A stretch of 48,141 bases of DNA, taken from the IMG/VR virus record IMGVR_UViG_2675903658_000004; one strand, 5' to 3'. This document shows positions 5,169 through 47,556 of this stretch, one piece after another; position 1 is the stretch's first letter, and every line of letters starts with the position of its first letter. Source of the DNA: a virus. Its lineage: Duplodnaviria > Heunggongvirae > Uroviricota > Caudoviricetes. The notes under the pieces are model-generated. The model saw only the letters and a list, made by a program, of their open reading frames with translations. It made no database searches and was not told the origin of the DNA. The position numbers and the translations under genes were made by a program.

Positions 5169-5321
5169 TCAGTGGTTGTCATACCTGGTCTCTCTCATCT
5201 GCTTCTGCTTTCGCCACCATCATTTCCAGCTTTTGTGAAAGGGATGTGGCTAACGTATGAAATTCTTTGAACCGCCCCGGGAATCCTGGAGACTAAACTT
5301 CCTGAGAAAGAGGTAAACAGG

Positions 5322-5648
5322 ATGACTAAAAATACTCGTTTTTCCCCCGAAGTCCGTCAACGGGCAGTCCGTATGGTTCTGGAAAGTCAGAGCGAATATG
5401 ACTCACAATGGGCGACAATTTGTTCCATTGCTCCAAAGATTGGCTGTACGCCGGAGACTCTGCGTGTCTGGGTTCGCCAGCATGAGCGGGATACCGGGGG
5501 CGGTGATGGAGGGCTCACCACCGCTGAACGTCAGCGTCTGAAAGAGCTGGAACGTGAAAATCGTGAACTGCGCTGCAGTAACGATATCCTTCGCCAGGCT
5601 TCCGCTTATTTTGCGAAGGCGGAGTTCGACCGCCTCTGGAAAAAATGA
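5322..5648 (+). CDS. IS629 OrfA (HTH transposase subunit)
   Basis: 108-aa ORF with HTH and leucine-zipper-like region; ends in an A-run where orfB overlaps in the -1 frame. Confidence 0.9.
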
Positions 5649-6535
5649 TGCCACTGCTGGATAAGCTGCGTGAGCAGTACGGGGTCGGACCGCTATGCAG
5701 CGAACTGCATATTGCCCCGTCAACGTATTACCACTGTCAGCAACAGCGACATCATCCGGATAAACGCAGTGCCCGTGCGCAGCGCGATGACTGGCTGAAG
5801 AAAGAGATACAGCGCGTATACGATGAAAATCACAAGGTATACGGTGTGCGTAAAGTCTGGCGTCAGTTGTTACGGGAAGGTATCAGAGTGGCCAGATGCA
5901 CTGTGGCACGTCTCATGGCGGTTATGGGACTTGCCGGTGTTCTCCGGGGTAAAAAGGTCCGTACGACCATCAGCCGGAAAGCCGTTGCCGCAGGCGACCG
6001 CGTAAACCGTCAGTTCGTGGCAGAACGACCTGACCAGCTGTGGGTGGCTGATTTTACTTACGTCAGCACATGGCGGGGCTTCGTCTATGTGGCGTTCATC
6101 ATTGATGTGTTTGCCGGATACATCGTGGGGTGGCGGGTCTCATCGTCCATGGAAACGACATTCGTGCTGGATGCACTGGAGCAGGCGTTATGGGCCCGTC
6201 GACCGTCCGGCACGGTCCATCACAGTGATAAAGGTTCTCAGTATGTATCGCTGGCCTACACACAGCGGCTTAAGGAAGCCGGATTACTGGCATCAACAGG
6301 AAGTACAGGCGACTCGTATGACAACGCGATGGCGGAGAGCATCAATGGTCTTTACAAAGCGGAGGTAATACACCGTAAGAGCTGGAAAAACCGTGCAGAA
6401 GTGGAACTGGCCACACTCACGTGGGTGGACTGGTATAACAATCGACGATTGCTGGAAAGGCTGGGCCATACTCCTCCGGCAGAAGCAGAAAAAGCTTATT
6501 ATGCTTCCATCGGAAACGATGATCTGGCAGCCTGA
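5645..6535 (+). CDS. IS629 OrfB (DDE integrase-core transposase)
   Basis: 296-aa ORF with an rve/DDE core; -1 frame relative to orfA. Confidence 0.9.
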
Positions 6536-6655
6536 GTTCACAGATAAAACACTCTCCAGGAAACCCGGGGCGGTTCACTTCGTCTGTTTCTACTGGTATT
6601 GGCACAAACCTGACTCCAATTTGAGCAAGGCTATGTGCCATCTCAATACTCGTTC

Positions 6656-11295: not shown

Positions 11296-12048
11296 TTATG
11301 CTGCAAGTCTCTTAACCCAAGTCTCTCTTTTGGAGAATGGTAGAACTTGGCTTGATTCATGGAAGAGTAAGGAGAGTTGTTGCATTTGATCACCAATTGC
11401 TTCGCTGTCTATAACAACAAATCTGTTGTTATACTCCTCACTTGAAGCTTTAAGATCAATTAGTTTCCCAAGCAATGAGTAAGCACTATTCCAGCTTCCT
11501 CCGTGTTTCACGCTTGATGTAAAAACGTATTTAGGTATGTCGGTTTTTATTGTTACAGGGACGGTAATTTGATGTCCACTCAAGCCATATACGTTTTCAC
11601 GAAGAGAAAGTGCGTCTCTAAGCTCTGTGTGATATAGATAATCAATAACCATACTTTCAAACTTTTCAGCTTGAACTGGCTGATACCAGTCTAACGACAA
11701 AGTTGATGCGAGTATACCAGCTCTAATTATGTTCGATGTAATCGCACCGACATCCTTTTCTGTTGCCCAAGCAATGATTTCTCCTCGAGCATTGAGTTCT
11801 GCGCCTTCTTTAAGCAGTAATTGTCGTATCTCATCAAGTCGTTTTTTGGTAAGCGAGATCCCTCTTGCCTCCATATTCATTAAGGCATCGCATCTGTCAC
11901 TAACTAAATACCTACCATTGACTTCACGGATAAAGGCACCGACATGCTCTCCATCATCACAGTAAGTGAATGGACTGATAATTCTCAAGGTCTTGCCTAT
12001 TGGATGGCATTCGAAACCTAGTTGTGAGATCACTGTTGAGCACATCAT
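11296..12048 (-). CDS. hypothetical protein, rex-slot gene 2 (250 aa), candidate defence/exclusion component
   Basis: ATG at 12048 overlaps the upstream stop in an ATGA arrangement; AT-rich; no recognisable motif; occupies the rexB position. Confidence 0.6.
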   Translation of the reverse strand: MMCSTVISQLGFECHPIGKTLRIISPFTYCDDGEHVGAFIREVNGRYLVSDRCDALMNMEARGISLTKKRLDEIRQLLLKEGAELNARGEIIAWATEKDVGAITSNIIRAGILASTLSLDWYQPVQAEKFESMVIDYLYHTELRDALSLRENVYGLSGHQITVPVTIKTDIPKYVFTSSVKHGGSWNSAYSLLGKLIDLKASSEEYNNRFVVIDSEAIGDQMQQLSLLFHESSQVLPFSKRETWVKRLAA

Positions 12049-12602
12049 ATTCCAAACCCCATTTGCCCCGACTCATCTTCAAGCGGTAAAGGTATTCTCC
12101 CAGAGTAAGTTATGTTCAGATGTTTACAGAAGTAATTCCAATACCCTACCAGGTCATCTGGGTTTATGTCATCTTCGATTGGAAACGCTATTCTATCACT
12201 ATAGTATCCAGCTTCTTCATAGTATACATGGTAGTGAGCACCGTAAATGATATCTTGGTACTTCGGATGATCGACCTTGTAACTATTCGTGTGTTTGTCA
12301 AAGTGATAGGTATCTACCGCGAAAACCCTCTTGTTATGATAGAAAGCAATAATATTTATTTTAGGGTAAGAAATCGGGTCATCAGGTTCTGAATCCTGAT
12401 CTGGTTTCCATTTCAGTTCAAACTTTAGCCCTTGTATAGGTATACAATCCTCATCCAAGGGGATGATATGGGCTTGTAGCCACATATCAGAGCGACTTGG
12501 TTTCTGTTTCCATTTAACGCCAGAAAAGTTAACTATTTTTTTACAATAAAGTACTTTATCAACTTCTACTTGGCTTGGCTGATAATCATCTATTTTTGCC
12601 AA
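12045..12602 (-). CDS. hypothetical protein, rex-slot gene 1 (185 aa), candidate defence/exclusion component
   Basis: Begins 39 nt downstream of the cI stop, same strand; annotated start is TTG (non-ATG), so the true start is uncertain; Tyr/His/Asp-rich, no TM segment seen. Confidence 0.55.
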   Translation of the reverse strand: MAKIDDYQPSQVEVDKVLYCKKIVNFSGVKWKQKPSRSDMWLQAHIIPLDEDCIPIQGLKFELKWKPDQDSEPDDPISYPKINIIAFYHNKRVFAVDTYHFDKHTNSYKVDHPKYQDIIYGAHYHVYYEEAGYYSDRIAFPIEDDINPDDLVGYWNYFCKHLNITYSGRIPLPLEDESGQMGFGI

Positions 12603-12641: not shown

Positions 12642-13301
12642 TCACCCAAACGTCTCTTCAGGCCATTGGCTGGCGATAACTTTCCCCACAACGGAACAAC
12701 TCTCATTGCATGGGATCATTGGGTATTGTGGGTTTAGTGGCTGTAGAAACACCTGACCGCTATCCCTGATCAGTTTCTTGAAGGTAAATTCATCACCACC
12801 AAGTCTGGCTATGCAGAAATCGCCGGGCTCAACAGCTTGCTCAGGGTCAACCAGAATTAACATCCCGTCAGGAAAGCTGGGTTTGGAACCTGTTGGTGCG
12901 GTCATTGAGTTACCTTCAACCTCAAGCCAGAATGCAGAGTCACTGGCTTTTTTGGTTGTGCTTACCAATCTCTCCGCATCGCCTTTGGTAAAGGTTCTGA
13001 GTTCTGGAGAGAACATCCCAGCCTGAACATGAGAAAAAACAGGGTACTCATATTGTTTTTTAACTGGGGCCGATGAGTATTCGCCAACAGGTGAAAATGT
13101 CCCGTCGTGGTTGAATGATATGTTATCAATACCAAGGTATTTAAACACCACACCAATATCACTAAGAGATGGATGACGAGATCCGCGCAACCAGTGTCCA
13201 ATCCCACCCTGCGTCATACCTAGCTCTTCGGCTAACTTCTCTTGAGTTATGCCGAGCTCTTTCATTCTGGATCTAGCCAGTTCATACCATTTCATTTTCA
13301 T
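12642..13301 (-). CDS. cI: CI-type prophage repressor (HTH plus S24/LexA-like autocleavage domain)
   Basis: N-terminal HTH ([22 protein letters not shown]), C-terminal GNSM...K motifs of S24 peptidases; divergent from cro across an operator region; start taken at an internal ATG. Confidence 0.85.
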
Positions 13302-13412
13302 GTCCTTATTATTACGCTCTGTACTGGAACCATCCATGCACAATGTGTATTTTTACTTGTATTCGCAAAGTACATATTGTATTTTTTTATTCGTGTTTAC
13401 TATGGAGGGCAT
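13302..13412. promoter_or_regulatory. oR/pRM/pR divergent promoter-operator region
   Basis: About 110-bp AT-rich intergenic region between divergent cI and cro; contains TACTTGTATTCGCAAAGTA-type partial inverted repeats; GGAGGG precedes the cro ATG. Confidence 0.5.
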
Positions 13413-13769: not shown

Positions 13770-14066
13770 ATGGAAAGAACAAGTTACAGCAAACTATCAC
13801 AGCGTGACGTTGATCGCGCAGAAACAGATTTACTTATCAATCTGTCAGCTATTACCCAGCGCGGTCTGGCAAAGATGATTGGCTGTCATGAATCGAAGAT
13901 AAGCAGAACGGACTGGAGATTTATTGCTTCGGTCTTGTGTGCTTTCGGAATGGCATCAGACATCAGTCCGATTAGCAGGGCTTTTAAGTATGCGCTTGAT
14001 GGACTCACCAATAAAAAACGCCCGGCGGCAACCGAGCGTTCTGAACAAATCCAGATGGAATTCTGA
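13770..14066 (+). CDS. cII: CII transcriptional activator
   Basis: C-terminus ...TNKKRPAATERSEQIQMEF matches lambda CII. Confidence 0.9.
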   Translation: MERTSYSKLSQRDVDRAETDLLINLSAITQRGLAKMIGCHESKISRTDWRFIASVLCAFGMASDISPISRAFKYALDGLTNKKRPAATERSEQIQMEF

Positions 14067-14088
14067 GGTCATTACTGGATCAATCCAC
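14012..14088 (-). ncRNA. oop: oop antisense RNA (putative)
   Basis: Minus-strand sequence matches recalled lambda OOP RNA, including the terminator GCCGCCGGGCG followed by UUUUUUAUU; antisense to the cII 3' end. Confidence 0.5.
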
Positions 14089-14446
14089 AGGAGTCATTAT
14101 GACAAATACAGCAAAAATACTCAACTTCTGCAGAGGTAACTTTGCCAAACAGGAGCGTAATGTGGCAGATCTCGATGATGGTTACGCCAGACTATCAAAT
14201 ATGCTGCTTGAGGCTTATTCAGGCGCAGATCTGACCAAGCGACAGTTTAAAGTGCTGCTTGCCATTCTGCGTAAAACCTATGGATGGAATAAACCAATGG
14301 ACAGAATCACCGATTCTCAACTTAGCGAGATTACAAAGTTACCCGTCAAACGGTGCAATGAAGCCAAGTTAGAACTCGTCAGAATGAATATTATCAAGCA
14401 GCAAGGCGGCATGTTTGGACCAAATAAAAACATCTCAGAATGGTGT

Positions 14447-14580
14447 ATCCCTCAAAACGAGGGAAAATCCCCTAAAACGAGGGATAAAACATCCCTCAAA
14501 TTGGGGGATTGCTATCCCTCAAAACAGGGGGACACAAAAGACACTATTACAAAAGAAAAAAGAAAAGATTATTCGTCAGA
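14447..14580. other. ori-lambda: four iterons (ATCCCTCAAAACGAGGGA-type) plus adjacent AT-rich segment
   Basis: Four tandem 18/19-bp iterons at about 14447-14531 followed by an A-rich stretch, inside the O coding region as in lambda. Confidence 0.8.
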
Positions 14581-14727
14581 GAATTCTGGCGAATCCTCTG
14601 ACCAGCCAGAAAACGACCTTTCTGTGGTGAAACCGGATGCTGCAATTCAGAGCGGCAGCAAGTGGGGGACAGCAGAAGACCTGACTGAACCGCCCCGGGT
14701 TTCCTGGAGAGTGTTTTATCTGTGAAC

Positions 14728-15618
14728 TCAGGCTGCCAGATCATCGTTTCCGATGGAAGCATAATAAGCTTTTTCTGCTTCTGCCGGAGGAGTATGGCCC
14801 AGCCTTTCCAGCAATCGTCGATTGTTATACCAGTCCACCCACGTGAGTGTGGCCAGTTCCACTTCTGCACGGTTTTTCCAGCTCTTACGGTGTATTACCT
14901 CCGCTTTGTAAAGACCATTGATGCTCTCCGCCATCGCGTTGTCATACGAGTCGCCTGTACTTCCTGTTGATGCCAGTAATCCGGCTTCCTTAAGCCGCTG
15001 TGTGTAGGCCAGCGATACATACTGAGAACCTTTATCACTGTGATGGACCGTGCCGGACGGTCGACGGGCCCATAACGCCTGCTCCAGTGCATCCAGCACG
15101 AATGTCGTTTCCATGGACGATGAGACCCGCCACCCCACGATGTATCCGGCAAACACATCAATGATGAACGCCACATAGACGAAGCCCCGCCATGTGCTGA
15201 CGTAAGTAAAATCAGCCACCCACAGCTGGTCAGGTCGTTCTGCCACGAACTGACGGTTTACGCGGTCGCCTGCGGCAACGGCTTTCCGGCTGATGGTCGT
15301 ACGGACCTTTTTACCCCGGAGAACACCGGCAAGTCCCATAACCGCCATGAGACGTGCCACAGTGCATCTGGCCACTCTGATACCTTCCCGTAACAACTGA
15401 CGCCAGACTTTACGCACACCGTATACCTTGTGATTTTCATCGTATACGCGCTGTATCTCTTTCTTCAGCCAGTCATCGCGCTGCGCACGGGCACTGCGTT
15501 TATCCGGATGATGTCGCTGTTGCTGACAGTGGTAATACGTTGACGGGGCAATATGCAGTTCGCTGCATAGCGGTCCGACCCCGTACTGCTCACGCAGCTT
15601 ATCCAGCAGTGGCATCAT
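14728..15618 (-). CDS. IS629 OrfB transposase
   Basis: Protein identical to copy 1 OrfB. Confidence 0.9.
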
Positions 15619-15941
15619 TTTTTCCAGAGGCGGTCGAACTCCGCCTTCGCAAAATAAGCGGAAGCCTGGCGAAGGATATCGTTACTGCAGCGCAGTTCAC
15701 GATTTTCACGTTCCAGCTCTTTCAGACGCTGACGTTCAGCGGTGGTGAGCCCTCCATCACCGCCCCCGGTATCCCGCTCATGCTGGCGAACCCAGACACG
15801 CAGAGTCTCCGGCGTACAGCCAATCTTTGGAGCAATGGAACAAATTGTCGCCCATTGTGAGTCATATTCGCTCTGACTTTCCAGAACCATACGGACTGCC
15901 CGTTGACGGACTTCGGGGGAAAAACGAGTATTTTTAGTCAT
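15615..15941 (-). CDS. IS629 OrfA
   Basis: Protein identical to copy 1 OrfA. Confidence 0.9.
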
Positions 15942-16307
15942 CCTGTTTACCTCTTTCTCAGGAAGTTTAGTCTCCAGGATTCCCGGGGCGGTTCAGACCG
16001 CCGCAGAATGGATGTTTGACATGGTGAAGACCATCGCGCCATCAGCCAGAAAACCGAATTTTGCAGGGTGGGCTAACGATATCCGCCTGATGCGTGAACG
16101 TGACGGACGTAACCATCGCGACATGTGTGTACTGTTCCGCTGGGCATGCCAGGACAACTTCTGGTCCGGTAACGTGCTGAGCCCGGCCAAACTCCGCGAC
16201 AAGTGGACCCAGCTCGAAATCAACCGTAACAAGCAACAGGCAGGTGTGACAGCCTGCAAACCAAAACTCGACCTGACAAACACTGACTGGATTTACGGGG
16301 TGGATTT

Positions 16308-17009
16308 ATGAAAAACATCGCCGCACAGATGGTTAATTTTGACCGTGAGCAGATGCGTCGGATCGCCAACAACATGCCGGAACAGTACGACGAAAAGCCG
16401 CAGGTACAGCAGGTAGCGCAGATCATCAACGGTGTGTTCAGCCAGTTACTGGCAACTTTCCCGGCGAGTCTGGCTAACCGTGACCAGAACGAACTGAACG
16501 AAATCCGCCGCCAGTGGGTTCTGGCTTTCCGGGAAAACGGGATCACCACAATGGAACAGGTTAACGCAGGAATGCGCGTAGCCCGTCGGCAGAATCGACC
16601 ATTTCTGCCATCACCCGGGCAGTTTGTTGCATGGTGCCGGGAAGAAGCATCCGTTATCGCCGGACTGCCAAACGTCAGCGAGCTGGTTGATATGGTTTAC
16701 GAGTATTGCCGGAAGCGAGGCCTGTATCCGGATGCAGAGTCTTATCCGTGGAAATCGAACGCGCACTACTGGCTGGTTACCAACCTGTACCAGAACATGC
16801 GGGCCAATGCGCTGACTGACGCGGAATTACGACGCAAGGCTGCCGATGAACTGACCTGTATGACAGCGCGAATTAACCGTGGTGAGACGATACCTGAACC
16901 AGTAAAACAACTTCCTGTCATGGGCGGCAGACCTCTAAATCGTGTTCAGGCGCTGGCGAAGATCGCAGAAATTAAAGCTAAGTTAGGACTGAAAGGAGCA
17001 AGTGTATGA
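16308..17009 (+). CDS. P: replication protein P (DnaB helicase loader)
   Basis: 233-aa protein matching recalled lambda P. Confidence 0.95.
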   Translation: MKNIAAQMVNFDREQMRRIANNMPEQYDEKPQVQQVAQIINGVFSQLLATFPASLANRDQNELNEIRRQWVLAFRENGITTMEQVNAGMRVARRQNRPFLPSPGQFVAWCREEASVIAGLPNVSELVDMVYEYCRKRGLYPDAESYPWKSNAHYWLVTNLYQNMRANALTDAELRRKAADELTCMTARINRGETIPEPVKQLPVMGGRPLNRVQALAKIAEIKAKLGLKGASV

Positions 17010-18851: not shown

Positions 18852-19038
18852 CCCATCTCAATCCCTTCAATACCTGAAAGAAAGCATAGAGCGGGCTTCA
18901 ATGTGCACAGAGTGGATTCTATCTAGGTTTAGCGCATACAGAAGATTGCCGGTAAAGGGCATGCCAAGCAAGTCGATGCTGCATATGCAAAAGAATGCGC
19001 GCTGGAAGGTATGGCGAGAACACAGGTTATGTGGCTGA
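18844..19038 (+). CDS. NinF-like small protein (divergent)
   Basis: N-terminus [10 protein letters not shown] resembles recalled lambda NinF, remainder diverges. Confidence 0.4.
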
Positions 19039-19057
19039 AAGAGGGGGTTATTAAGGC

Positions 19058-44179: not shown

Positions 44180-46189
44180 GTGAATATGGCAGTACAGATT
44201 TCAGGCGTGCTGAAAGACGGTGCAGGAAAACCGATACAGAACTGCACCATTCAGCTCAAAGCAAAACGTAACAGCACCACGGTTGTGGTGAACACGGTGG
44301 CCTCAGAAAATCCGGATGAAGCCGGACGTTACAGCATGGATGTCGAGTATGGCCAGTACAGCGTTATCCTGCTGGTTGAAGGTTTTCCGCCTTCACATGC
44401 CGGGGCCATCACCGTGTATGAGGATTCTAAGCCGGGGACATTGAATGATTTTCTGGGCGCTGCAACAGAAGATGATGTTCGTCCGGAGGCACTGTATCGT
44501 TTTGAAAAGATGGTGGAAGAGGTGGCACGCAACGCTGAAGCCGCCTCTCAGAGCGCAGCGGCAGCAAAGAAATCAGAAACAGCAGCGGCATCGTCCAGGA
44601 ATGCGGCGAAAACATCAGAGACGAATGCAGGTAACAGCGCGAAAGCGGCAGCTTCTTCAAAAACAGCCGCACAAAACGCAGCAACAGCGGCAGAACGTTC
44701 AGAGACAAATGCCCGTGCGTCAGAAGAAGCCTCCGCAGACAGTGAAGAGGCTTCCCGCCGTAATGCAGAGTCAGCCGCTGAAAATGCCGGAGTCGCCACC
44801 ACAAAAGCGCGGGAGGCCGCAGCAGACGCAACAAAGGCCGGGCAGAAAAAGGATGAGGCTCTGTCGGCAGCGACACGGGCTGAAAAGGCGGCAGACCGCG
44901 CAGAAGTCGCAGCGGAAGTGACTGCAGAGCCCTATGCGAATATAGTGCCGCCGCTGCCTGATGTGTGGATACCGTTTAACGATTCACTGGATATGATTGC
45001 GGGTTTTTCTCCGGGCTATAAAAAAATAGCTATTGGTGACGATGTGGTTCAGGTCGCCAGTGATAAACAGGTTAATTTCAGTCGCGCATCAACGGCAACA
45101 TATATCAACAAATCTGGCGAACTGAAAACGGCGGAAATTAATGAGCCGCGATTTGAGTGTGATGGCCTGCTTATTGAGGGACAAAGAACGAACTACATGC
45201 TCAATTCGGAAAGTCCAGCCAGCTGGGGGAAGTCATCAAACATGGATGTGCCCGAAACCGGGACAGATAGTTTTGGTTTTACTTATGGAAAGTTTGTCTG
45301 CAACGATTCTCTGGTTGGGCAAACTTCGGCTATTAATATGGCATCAATTGCTGCAACAAAGTCAGTTGATGTCTCAGGCGATAACAAGTACGTGACAACC
45401 TCATGCCGTTTTAAAACAGAACGACAGGTAAGGTTACGTATACGGTTTGATAAGTATGATGGTAGTGCAACAACTTTTCTTGGCGATGCGTACATTGATA
45501 CGCAAACGCTTGAAATTAATATGACAGGTGGGGCTGCCGGCAGAATTACGGCACGAGTCAGGAAGGATAAGACCACAGGCTGGATTTTTGCAGAGGCAAC
45601 GATTCAGGCAATTGATGGTGAGTTAAAAATAGGCTCTCAGATACAGTATTCTCCTGAGCGGGGTGGGGCAACAGTATCTGGTGACTATATTTATCTTGCC
45701 ACCCCACAAGTAGAGAATGGGCCGTGTGTATCATCATTTATTATTTCAGGAGGCAGCGCAACGACAAGAGCCAGTGATTTGGTTAGTATCCCCACCAGAA
45801 ATAATCTTTATAAGTTACCATTTACTTTTTTACTTGAGATTCATAAAAACTGGGATATTGCACCAAACGCCGCACCCCGCGTGTGGGATATAGCAGCAGC
45901 CAATACCGGGCAATCAGCAATTGCAGCAATCAACAGAGGTAGTGGTAAGTTATATATGAGTCTGTCAAACCCTTCAGGCTTGTATGTTAATAGCGCAGCG
46001 ACAGATGTATTTGCAGAGAAAACCACATTTGGATGTATTGCAAAAGCTGATGGTCACTTTCATGTGGTGACAAATGGTAAAGCGGTTAATGAAGTTTATT
46101 GTGAATATAATGGTGTGACCGCTGATAAAAATATCCGATTTGGAGGGCAGACGAATACTGGAGAACGACATCTGTTTGGCCATATTTGA
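44180..46189 (+). CDS. stf: side tail fiber protein (Stf-like N-terminus, distinct C-terminal domain); last 20 codons displaced by IS629 copy 3
   Basis: N-terminus MAVQISGVLKDGAGKPIQNCTIQLKAKRNSTTVVVNTV... matches lambda Stf; Ala/Ser-rich repeats; the ORF's stop TGA is the first three bases of the IS629 terminus. Confidence 0.85.
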   Translation: MNMAVQISGVLKDGAGKPIQNCTIQLKAKRNSTTVVVNTVASENPDEAGRYSMDVEYGQYSVILLVEGFPPSHAGAITVYEDSKPGTLNDFLGAATEDDVRPEALYRFEKMVEEVARNAEAASQSAAAAKKSETAAASSRNAAKTSETNAGNSAKAAASSKTAAQNAATAAERSETNARASEEASADSEEASRRNAESAAENAGVATTKAREAAADATKAGQKKDEALSAATRAEKAADRAEVAAEVTAEPYANIVPPLPDVWIPFNDSLDMIAGFSPGYKKIAIGDDVVQVASDKQVNFSRASTATYINKSGELKTAEINEPRFECDGLLIEGQRTNYMLNSESPASWGKSSNMDVPETGTDSFGFTYGKFVCNDSLVGQTSAINMASIAATKSVDVSGDNKYVTTSCRFKTERQVRLRIRFDKYDGSATTFLGDAYIDTQTLEINMTGGAAGRITARVRKDKTTGWIFAEATIQAIDGELKIGSQIQYSPERGGATVSGDYIYLATPQVENGPCVSSFIISGGSATTRASDLVSIPTRNNLYKLPFTFLLEIHKNWDIAPNAAPRVWDIAAANTGQSAIAAINRGSGKLYMSLSNPSGLYVNSAATDVFAEKTTFGCIAKADGHFHVVTNGKAVNEVYCEYNGVTADKNIRFGGQTNTGERHLFGHI

Positions 46190-46240
46190 ACCGCCCCGGG
46201 AATCCTGGAGACTAAACTTCCTGAGAAAGAGGTAAACAGG

Positions 46241-46567
46241 ATGACTAAAAATACTCGTTTTTCCCCCGAAGTCCGTCAACGGGCAGTCCGTATGGTTCTG
46301 GAAAGTCAGAGCGAATATGACTCACAATGGGCGACAATTTGTTCCATTGCTCCAAAGATTGGCTGTACGCCGGAGACTCTGCGTGTCTGGGTTCGCCAGC
46401 ATGAGCGGGATACCGGGGGCGGTGATGGAGGGCTCACCACCGCTGAACGTCAGCGTCTGAAAGAGCTGGAACGTGAAAATCGTGAACTGCGCTGCAGTAA
46501 CGATATCCTTCGCCAGGCTTCCGCTTATTTTGCGAAGGCGGAGTTCGACCGCCTCTGGAAAAAATGA
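46241..46567 (+). CDS. IS629 OrfA
   Basis: Protein identical to copy 1 OrfA. Confidence 0.9.
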
Positions 46568-47454
46568 TGCCACTGCTGGATAAGCTGCGTGAGCAGTACG
46601 GGGTCGGACCGCTATGCAGCGAACTGCATATTGCCCCGTCAACGTATTACCACTGTCAGCAACAGCGACATCATCCGGATAAACGCAGTGCCCGTGCGCA
46701 GCGCGATGACTGGCTGAAGAAAGAGATACAGCGCGTATACGATGAAAATCACAAGGTATACGGTGTGCGTAAAGTCTGGCGTCAGTTGTTACGGGAAGGT
46801 ATCAGAGTGGCCAGATGCACTGTGGCACGTCTCATGGCGGTTATGGGACTTGCCGGTGTTCTCCGGGGTAAAAAGGTCCGTACGACCATCAGCCGGAAAG
46901 CCGTTGCCGCAGGCGACCGCGTAAACCGTCAGTTCGTGGCAGAACGACCTGACCAGCTGTGGGTGGCTGATTTTACTTACGTCAGCACATGGCGGGGCTT
47001 CGTCTATGTGGCGTTCATCATTGATGTGTTTGCCGGATACATCGTGGGGTGGCGGGTCTCATCGTCCATGGAAACGACATTCGTGCTGGATGCACTGGAG
47101 CAGGCGTTATGGGCCCGTCGACCGTCCGGCACGGTCCATCACAGTGATAAAGGTTCTCAGTATGTATCGCTGGCCTACACACAGCGGCTTAAGGAAGCCG
47201 GATTACTGGCATCAACAGGAAGTACAGGCGACTCGTATGACAACGCGATGGCGGAGAGCATCAATGGTCTTTACAAAGCGGAGGTAATACACCGTAAGAG
47301 CTGGAAAAACCGTGCAGAAGTGGAACTGGCCACACTCACGTGGGTGGACTGGTATAACAATCGACGATTGCTGGAAAGGCTGGGCCATACTCCTCCGGCA
47401 GAAGCAGAAAAAGCTTATTATGCTTCCATCGGAAACGATGATCTGGCAGCCTGA
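46564..47454 (+). CDS. IS629 OrfB transposase
   Basis: Protein identical to copy 1 OrfB. Confidence 0.9.
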
Positions 47455-47556
47455 GTTCACAGATAAAACACTCTCCAGGAAACCCGGGGCGGTTCATATT
47501 CGCAATTTCCGCATATGGCATAAAGAATTAAATGACAGGCAATTAAAAGAGGTCGT

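Follow-up and report, generated by a model that had tools for sequence, protein, structure and literature searches.

IS629-type insertion in the replication gene O of a lambda-like prophage from a clade of B2 Escherichia coli

Introduction

The replication protein O of phage lambda binds the repeats of the origin (iterons) with its N-terminal part and the replication protein P with its C-terminal part, and a linker joins the two (PMC6022878). Null alleles of its gene (Oam29, Oam8, and the RK- 'ilr' insertion and deletion mutants) are among the closest described counterparts of the locus presented here, the O gene of the lambda-like prophage in IMG/VR record IMGVR_UViG_2675903658_000004, which is split by an insertion sequence (IS) of the IS629 type. 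The record is 48,141 nucleotides (nt) long and is called the window when its whole length is meant; coordinates count from its first letter. The lambda O protein is 99% identical, its origin is the same, and loss of its C-terminal part abolishes initiation. Oam29 encodes 294 of the 299 amino acids (aa) and is inactive, so the last five residues of O are essential (PMC6022878). Nonsense alleles giving 76 or 294 aa were complemented weakly by plasmid-borne O, and an allele giving 37 aa showed no complementation (PMC6022878). Insertions in O were among the mutants that survived derepression of a prophage in the laboratory (PMC6022878). Unlike the lambda alleles, the allele of the window is natural, was caused by IS629, and is fixed in a clade, and what remains of O is an iteron-binding fragment of 196 aa followed by a foreign tail of 12 aa.

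In E. coli, IS629 is a main driver of the diversification of prophages and of the disruption of genes (PMC4587872, PMC2669165). In the prophages of enterohaemorrhagic E. coli, represented by the prophage pool of strain Sakai and by the subtypes of Shiga toxin 2a (Stx2a) phages, the same IS takes part in the same process of diversification and inactivation. The nu1 gene of Sp4 is disrupted by an IS (PMC2669165), and in Stx2a phages IS629 is found in roi and in genes for lysozyme and methylase (PMC4587872). The window differs from them in its host, a B2 lineage other than Shiga toxin-producing E. coli, in its IS isoform, which shares about 96% identity with the O157 copies, and in the target, gene O. 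The prophage next to icd in strains CFT073, UTI89, and Nissle 1917 has the same backbone and integration site as that of the window, but its O is intact. The prophages of Nissle 1917 were reported as not inducible (PMC5987069). Judging from gene numbering, the Nissle prophage with the identical O is probably its 'prophage 3'. A literature search for IS629, replication protein O, and prophage found no paper on the allele of the window.

The insertion in gene O

Gene O of the window very probably carries a loss-of-function insertion made by an active IS629-type element, in a decaying, non-propagating prophage of a B2 E. coli clade. Decay and lack of propagation are read from the break in O together with a nonsense codon in the terminase gene and a further IS copy in a tail-fibre-like gene. 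The element in O is an apparently intact, 1310-bp member of the IS3 family on the minus strand (14686..15995), recognized by its identity with an annotated element, by its terminal inverted repeats, and by identical copies elsewhere in the window. The inverted repeats (14686-14710 and 15971-15995) are imperfect, about 25-26 nt long, and 92% complementary. The trinucleotide GAC flanks the element on the left (14683..14685) and on the right (15996..15998) as a target-site duplication, while lambda and the intact alleles have a single GAC at this place. O starts at 14099, and the 587 nt before the IS make up 195 codons and 2 nt, so that the frame is broken after the second base of codon 196.

When the IS and one GAC are removed in silico, an open reading frame (ORF) of 900 nt encoding 299 aa is restored. 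Its product is identical with lambda O in 296 of 299 aa in a gap-free alignment, and over all 900 nt it is 100.0% identical to the intact O genes of CFT073, UTI89, Nissle 1917, ATCC 25922, APEC O1, IHE3034, and many other B2 E. coli. These intact alleles are exact empty sites and so prove that the insertion was a simple one and duplicated 3 bp of its target. An earlier note, made from the letters of the window alone, had proposed that O matches lambda O on both sides of the insertion, that IS629 splits it at codon 196, and that the GAC duplication marks a simple insertion; the analysis, with the alignment to lambda O that the note asked for, bears out all of this. Lambda O is a single ORF of about 299 aa with the P-interacting C-terminal part joined to the rest, and here 1310 bp interrupt this frame. 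As judged from the broken frame, O of the window is a pseudogene of the lambda-type O family and not a functional member of it.

The IS itself has the expected two-ORF organization. The orfA gene (15615..15941, minus strand, 108 aa) encodes a helix-turn-helix protein (HTH_Tnp_1, PF01527, E=4e-12), and orfB (14728..15618, minus strand, 296 aa) encodes the DDE/rve catalytic domain (PF00665 rve, E=8e-28; NF033516 transpos_IS3, E=1e-93). The two genes overlap at 15615-15618, as expected for the -1 frameshift of IS629. An ALIL pseudoknot, which stimulates programmed -1 frameshifting in IS3-family transposases, was recognized at 15544..15660 on the minus strand (Rfam RF01497, 120.2 bits at a gathering score of 50). 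Length and ends also agree with IS629, which is about 1310 bp long and has imperfect inverted repeats starting with TGAAC. Across exactly 1310 bp the element is 99.5% identical to the one annotated as 'IS3 family IS629' in the Stx2a phage record LC567824.1, and it is 95.8-96.2% identical to O157 copies labelled IS1203 by the Prokaryotic Genome Annotation Pipeline. In ISfinder practice, an isoform shares at least 95% nt identity. By these identities the name IS629 is justified for the element in O as an isoform.

Two more copies, both 100% identical to the one in O and both on the plus strand, were found by comparison within the window. The second copy (5268..6577) is in the early-left region, inside a DUF1382 gene, and the third (46187..47496) is inside a tail-fibre-like gene, close to its 3' end. 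Target duplications of 3-4 bp, as made by IS629, accompany all three copies: CTT at the second, GAC in O, and TATT at the third. Three identical copies within 42 kb and in both orientations could recombine, and the split O might then be a trace of a larger deletion or inversion between them. Such a rearrangement is practically excluded, as each copy has its own matching duplication, the flanks are collinear with KE51, AHB19, FCI5, and CFT073, and O is restored perfectly on removal of the IS; the matching duplications and the collinearity refute it.

Fragments of O

The 5' fragment of the lambda-type O gene (14099..14685, plus strand) consists of codons 1-195 and two bases of codon 196 and aligns to nt 1-587 of lambda O. 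It encodes the complete N-terminal iteron-binding domain, which matches Pfam PF04492 Phage_rep_O at residues 22-115 (E=3e-36, 124 bits) and TIGR01610 phage_O_Nterm (E=3e-39, 133 bits). According to the ORF list and the comparison with the reconstructed O, the reading frame continues into the IS and forms a chimeric ORF of 208 aa (14099..14725, plus strand). It has 196 native O residues, as codon 196 still encodes Thr, and 12 residues from the IS end, EPPRVSWRVFYL, followed by a stop. The iteron-binding domain and the linker are thus kept whole in an ORF that ends 12 codons inside the IS, and 103 C-terminal residues are cut off from them. The 3' fragment (15997..16311, plus strand) aligns to nt 585-900 of lambda O and holds codons 196-299 and the stop. 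These 3' 104 codons are the detached C-terminal part, the region assigned to P binding, and they gave no Pfam or NCBIfam match. A sequence search of restored O against PDB chains found no solved relative at E<=0.01.

The insertion point is the end of the Ser/Asp/Glu-rich linker, so the break leaves both domains whole, and the first in-frame ATG of the 3' fragment at 16012 (Met201) opens a possible ORF of 99 aa to the native stop. The N-terminal fragment might therefore associate with an independently translated C-terminal fragment, or suffice by itself, and the split gene would remain functional. This is very improbable. No ribosome-binding site (Shine-Dalgarno sequence) was recognizable by eye in the sequence upstream of 16012, and no promoter-like site faces this codon. 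Recruitment of P also needs the P-binding part tethered to origin-bound O, and the nonsense alleles giving 76 or 294 aa are null (PMC6022878).

Replication origin and expected loss of function

The replication origin lies upstream of the IS and is preserved. As in ori of lambda, four iterons of 18-19 bp lie within O, and an AT-rich segment comes after them. The iterons, equivalents of lambda ITN1-4, form a family of four direct repeats at 14447..14533 with spacing of 20, 24, and 23 and are identical to those of lambda; the annotated iterons 1-4 of lambda, mapped through the alignment, fall at 14447..14531. The AT-rich unwinding segment and the adjoining right arm of ori, with an EcoRI-centred palindrome inside (14534..14600), are intact and lambda-identical in the alignment. 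By hand count, G+C content is about 22% over 14534-14574. Lambda and the window agree in every base between the start of iteron 1 and the insertion point, and the closest difference, a single base, is found immediately upstream of that iteron. The origin therefore is as intact as the earlier note had held. Clear of the insertion is also a conserved minus-strand unit across the cII-O junction (14015..14124) with a promoter-like site at 14124..14096 and a terminator with a 12-bp stem at 14042..14015. From lambda, we take this unit to be the pO promoter and the oop antisense RNA.

Gene P (16308..17009, plus strand) is intact and encodes 233 aa (PF06992 Phage_lambda_P, E=1e-61). Its ATG overlaps the stop of O in the sequence ATGA and is preceded by a purine-rich stretch of its own. 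The protein is RefSeq WP_000788872.1, the same as P of CFT073. At the scan thresholds, no plus-strand promoter-like site that could serve the 3' fragment of O or P was found inside the IS or between the IS and P, and a scan for plus-strand terminators inside the IS found no strong one. As no promoter-like site faces P from the IS, its expression hangs on read-through from pR. This read-through is probably N-modified; the N-like antiterminator of the window is an intact ORF (phrog_271). Polarity of the 1.3-kb insertion may also lower the expression of P.

Taken together, a single transposition of IS629 into the boundary between the linker and the C-terminal domain of O in the icd-adjacent prophage would explain the locus. 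After derepression, the 208-aa fragment would still bind the iterons, but it would be without the part that recruits P and DnaB, and the helicase would stay unloaded at ori. Neither theta nor later rolling-circle replication would then begin from the prophage, and polarity would possibly lower P output too. The loss of self-initiated replication is well supported by analogy with lambda. Some points weigh against this reading. Its functional consequence is carried over from lambda by homology, a transfer that is strong at 99% aa identity; the 99-aa ORF from Met201 might in principle be translated and give a two-piece O; and the reading applies to the prophage of the window taken by itself, in a host with no other lambda-type O.

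The earlier note had added that replication should fail unless O is supplied in trans. This proviso appears optimistic, because plasmid-borne O gives little or no complementation of nonsense alleles (PMC6022878). The iteron-binding fragment of 196 aa that is left could also compete at the origin. Defective prophages are sometimes replicated or packaged with the help of a co-resident prophage (PMC2669165). As the origin is base-for-base that of lambda, a co-infecting phage with a lambda-type O could in principle drive it, and this would be the only realistic route of mobilisation. The prophage is best scored as replication-defective and non-propagating, also where a prediction program might list it as 'intact', and its virulence-associated cargo (iss/bor, the porin gene, sieB, and a candidate defence pair) would pass on by vertical inheritance in the absence of a helper phage.

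Distribution and age of the insertion

Both junctions of the insertion were found as single 100% matches in four of 5426 complete E. coli genomes: HM670 (O2:H1, stool, USA), KE51 (urine, USA), AHB19 (blood, UK), and FCI5 (urine, Colombia). The exact 208-aa chimera is encoded on 108 public contigs, under names that include 'replication protein O [E. coli HVH 109]'. With both junctions recurring in complete genomes and the chimera on so many contigs, an assembly artefact is ruled out as the source of the insertion. In RefSeq, the O halves are annotated as incomplete 'replication protein' pseudogenes around an IS3-family transposase. The window is nearest to KE51, AHB19, and HM670 (99.96-99.97%) and is from a fifth, slightly different strain of the same clade. 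The insertions in O and in the DUF1382 gene are the lesions common to all five members, while those in tail genes are private. The position of the third IS copy of the window is occupied in none of the four complete genomes; HM670 has no IS there and carries one in gene J. The insertion in O is a marker of this clade of B2 extraintestinal and intestinal E. coli, for which its junctions and the 208-aa chimera are convenient, and it has little significance beyond annotation.

As judged by divergence, the insertion is recent in evolutionary terms, because the O fragments differ from the intact alleles at 0 of 900 nt and the P proteins of the window and CFT073 share one RefSeq entry. The large terminase subunit gene of the window (25660-27588, plus strand) has a TGA nonsense codon at position 301 (W301*, 26560..26562), where comparison of genomes reveals TGG in CFT073 and FCI5. 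The same stop is annotated as 'internal stop' in HM670, KE51, and AHB19. FCI5 therefore combines the O insertion with an intact codon 301, but 91 of its 98 differences lie in a 26-30-kb patch that holds this codon, where recombination is inseparable from ancestry, so FCI5 gives no order for the lesions. The TGA codon is an independent block to packaging. Repair of O alone would not give a viable phage, because the terminase nonsense codon and the further IS copies, one of them in the tail-fibre-like gene, would remain.

CFT073 has the same prophage next to icd (NC_004431.1, 1393891-1434790), with both O and P intact. There, xis is hit by an IS3-family element and ea22 by ISEc10, a further IS lies between ren and ninB, cI is split, and a tail gene is frameshifted. 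With O and P intact but other lesions in the CFT073 copy, the icd-adjacent prophage is, by comparison of these sequences, decaying independently across B2 lineages. The natural insertion in O is an ordinary step of prophage decay that needs no new mechanism, is already known in kind, and is already annotated in public records.

IS629 or IS1203 insertions are also present in other lambda-type O genes. In O157 strain AR-0430 an independent one lies at about nt 231 of O, and Stx1a phages LC727896-99 probably have the same insertion at about nt 231, as their matches fall into matching multiple pieces. Further independent cases are UTAK-6 at about nt 90 and AUSMDU00014361 at about nt 594 with an upstream deletion, and match geometry suggests several more. 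The IS family and the gene are the same as in the window, and O is likewise annotated as two partial 'replication protein' pieces, but positions and prophages are different, which makes them separate events. In every O insertion found the transposase is antisense to O; an orientation bias was nevertheless rejected as an explanation, since the search joins pieces of the same strand and hides the opposite orientation.

The recurrence of such insertions at several positions of O in unrelated lineages, and the place of the O insertion among the two lesions that all five clade members have in common, would also fit a selected domestication. In that case loss of O, perhaps with less P, would have been favoured as it removes prophage replication and P toxicity on accidental derepression, while the host keeps a cargo of immunity, sieB, iss/bor, the porin gene, and the candidate defence pair at the rex position. 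The repressor of the Nissle 1917 prophage that is probably 'prophage 3', with its identical and intact O, protects against lambda and stx phages (PMC5987069), and this too is in favour of domestication. Domestication is nonetheless quite unlikely. Laboratory selections relied on non-excisable prophage fragments without late and kil functions, whereas int, xis, kil, Q, and the lysis genes of the window are intact ORFs, and from lambda biology its induction should be harmful even without replication. Many prophage genes have been struck by IS629 without evident selection (PMC4587872), and CFT073 has its IS elsewhere in the same prophage with O intact. A wider form of the idea takes the O insertion as the founding, positively selected event and lambda-type O as a recurrent IS629 target, replication-null prophages being safer for the host. 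It is improbable as well; if true, natural O insertions would mirror the laboratory survivors of 'replicative killing'.

Other genes of the prophage

A map made through nearly identical genomes with annotation makes the window a complete lambda-like prophage, which extends from the integrase beside icd up to the final gene of the tail region, before sitD. Besides int, xis, kil, P, Q, and the lysis cassette, the intact ORFs are exo, bet, gam, cIII, a LexA-type repressor, cro, cII, and ren. Compared by eye with lambda cI, the C-terminal autocleavage half of the repressor (12642-13337, minus strand) looks nearly identical and its N-terminal DNA-binding part looks different. Such a repressor would give the lambda-like backbone a different immunity.

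At the position of rexA and rexB in lambda, the window has genes for a DUF1828 protein (11296-12048, minus strand) and a hypothetical protein (12045-12602, minus strand). The pair weakly matches the PADLOC candidate defence system PDC-M24 (M24B, E=5e-10; M24A, E=5e-4). In annotation transferred from identical genomes, a gene for an OmpC-like porin (20215-21297, minus strand) separates Q from the lysis genes, and iss/bor (23088-23381, minus strand) lies downstream of Rz. The transfer also reveals a 5'-truncated DUF1364 gene in the nin region (18972-19061, plus strand) and a truncated N-terminal fragment of a tail-fibre gene (44186-44549, plus strand).

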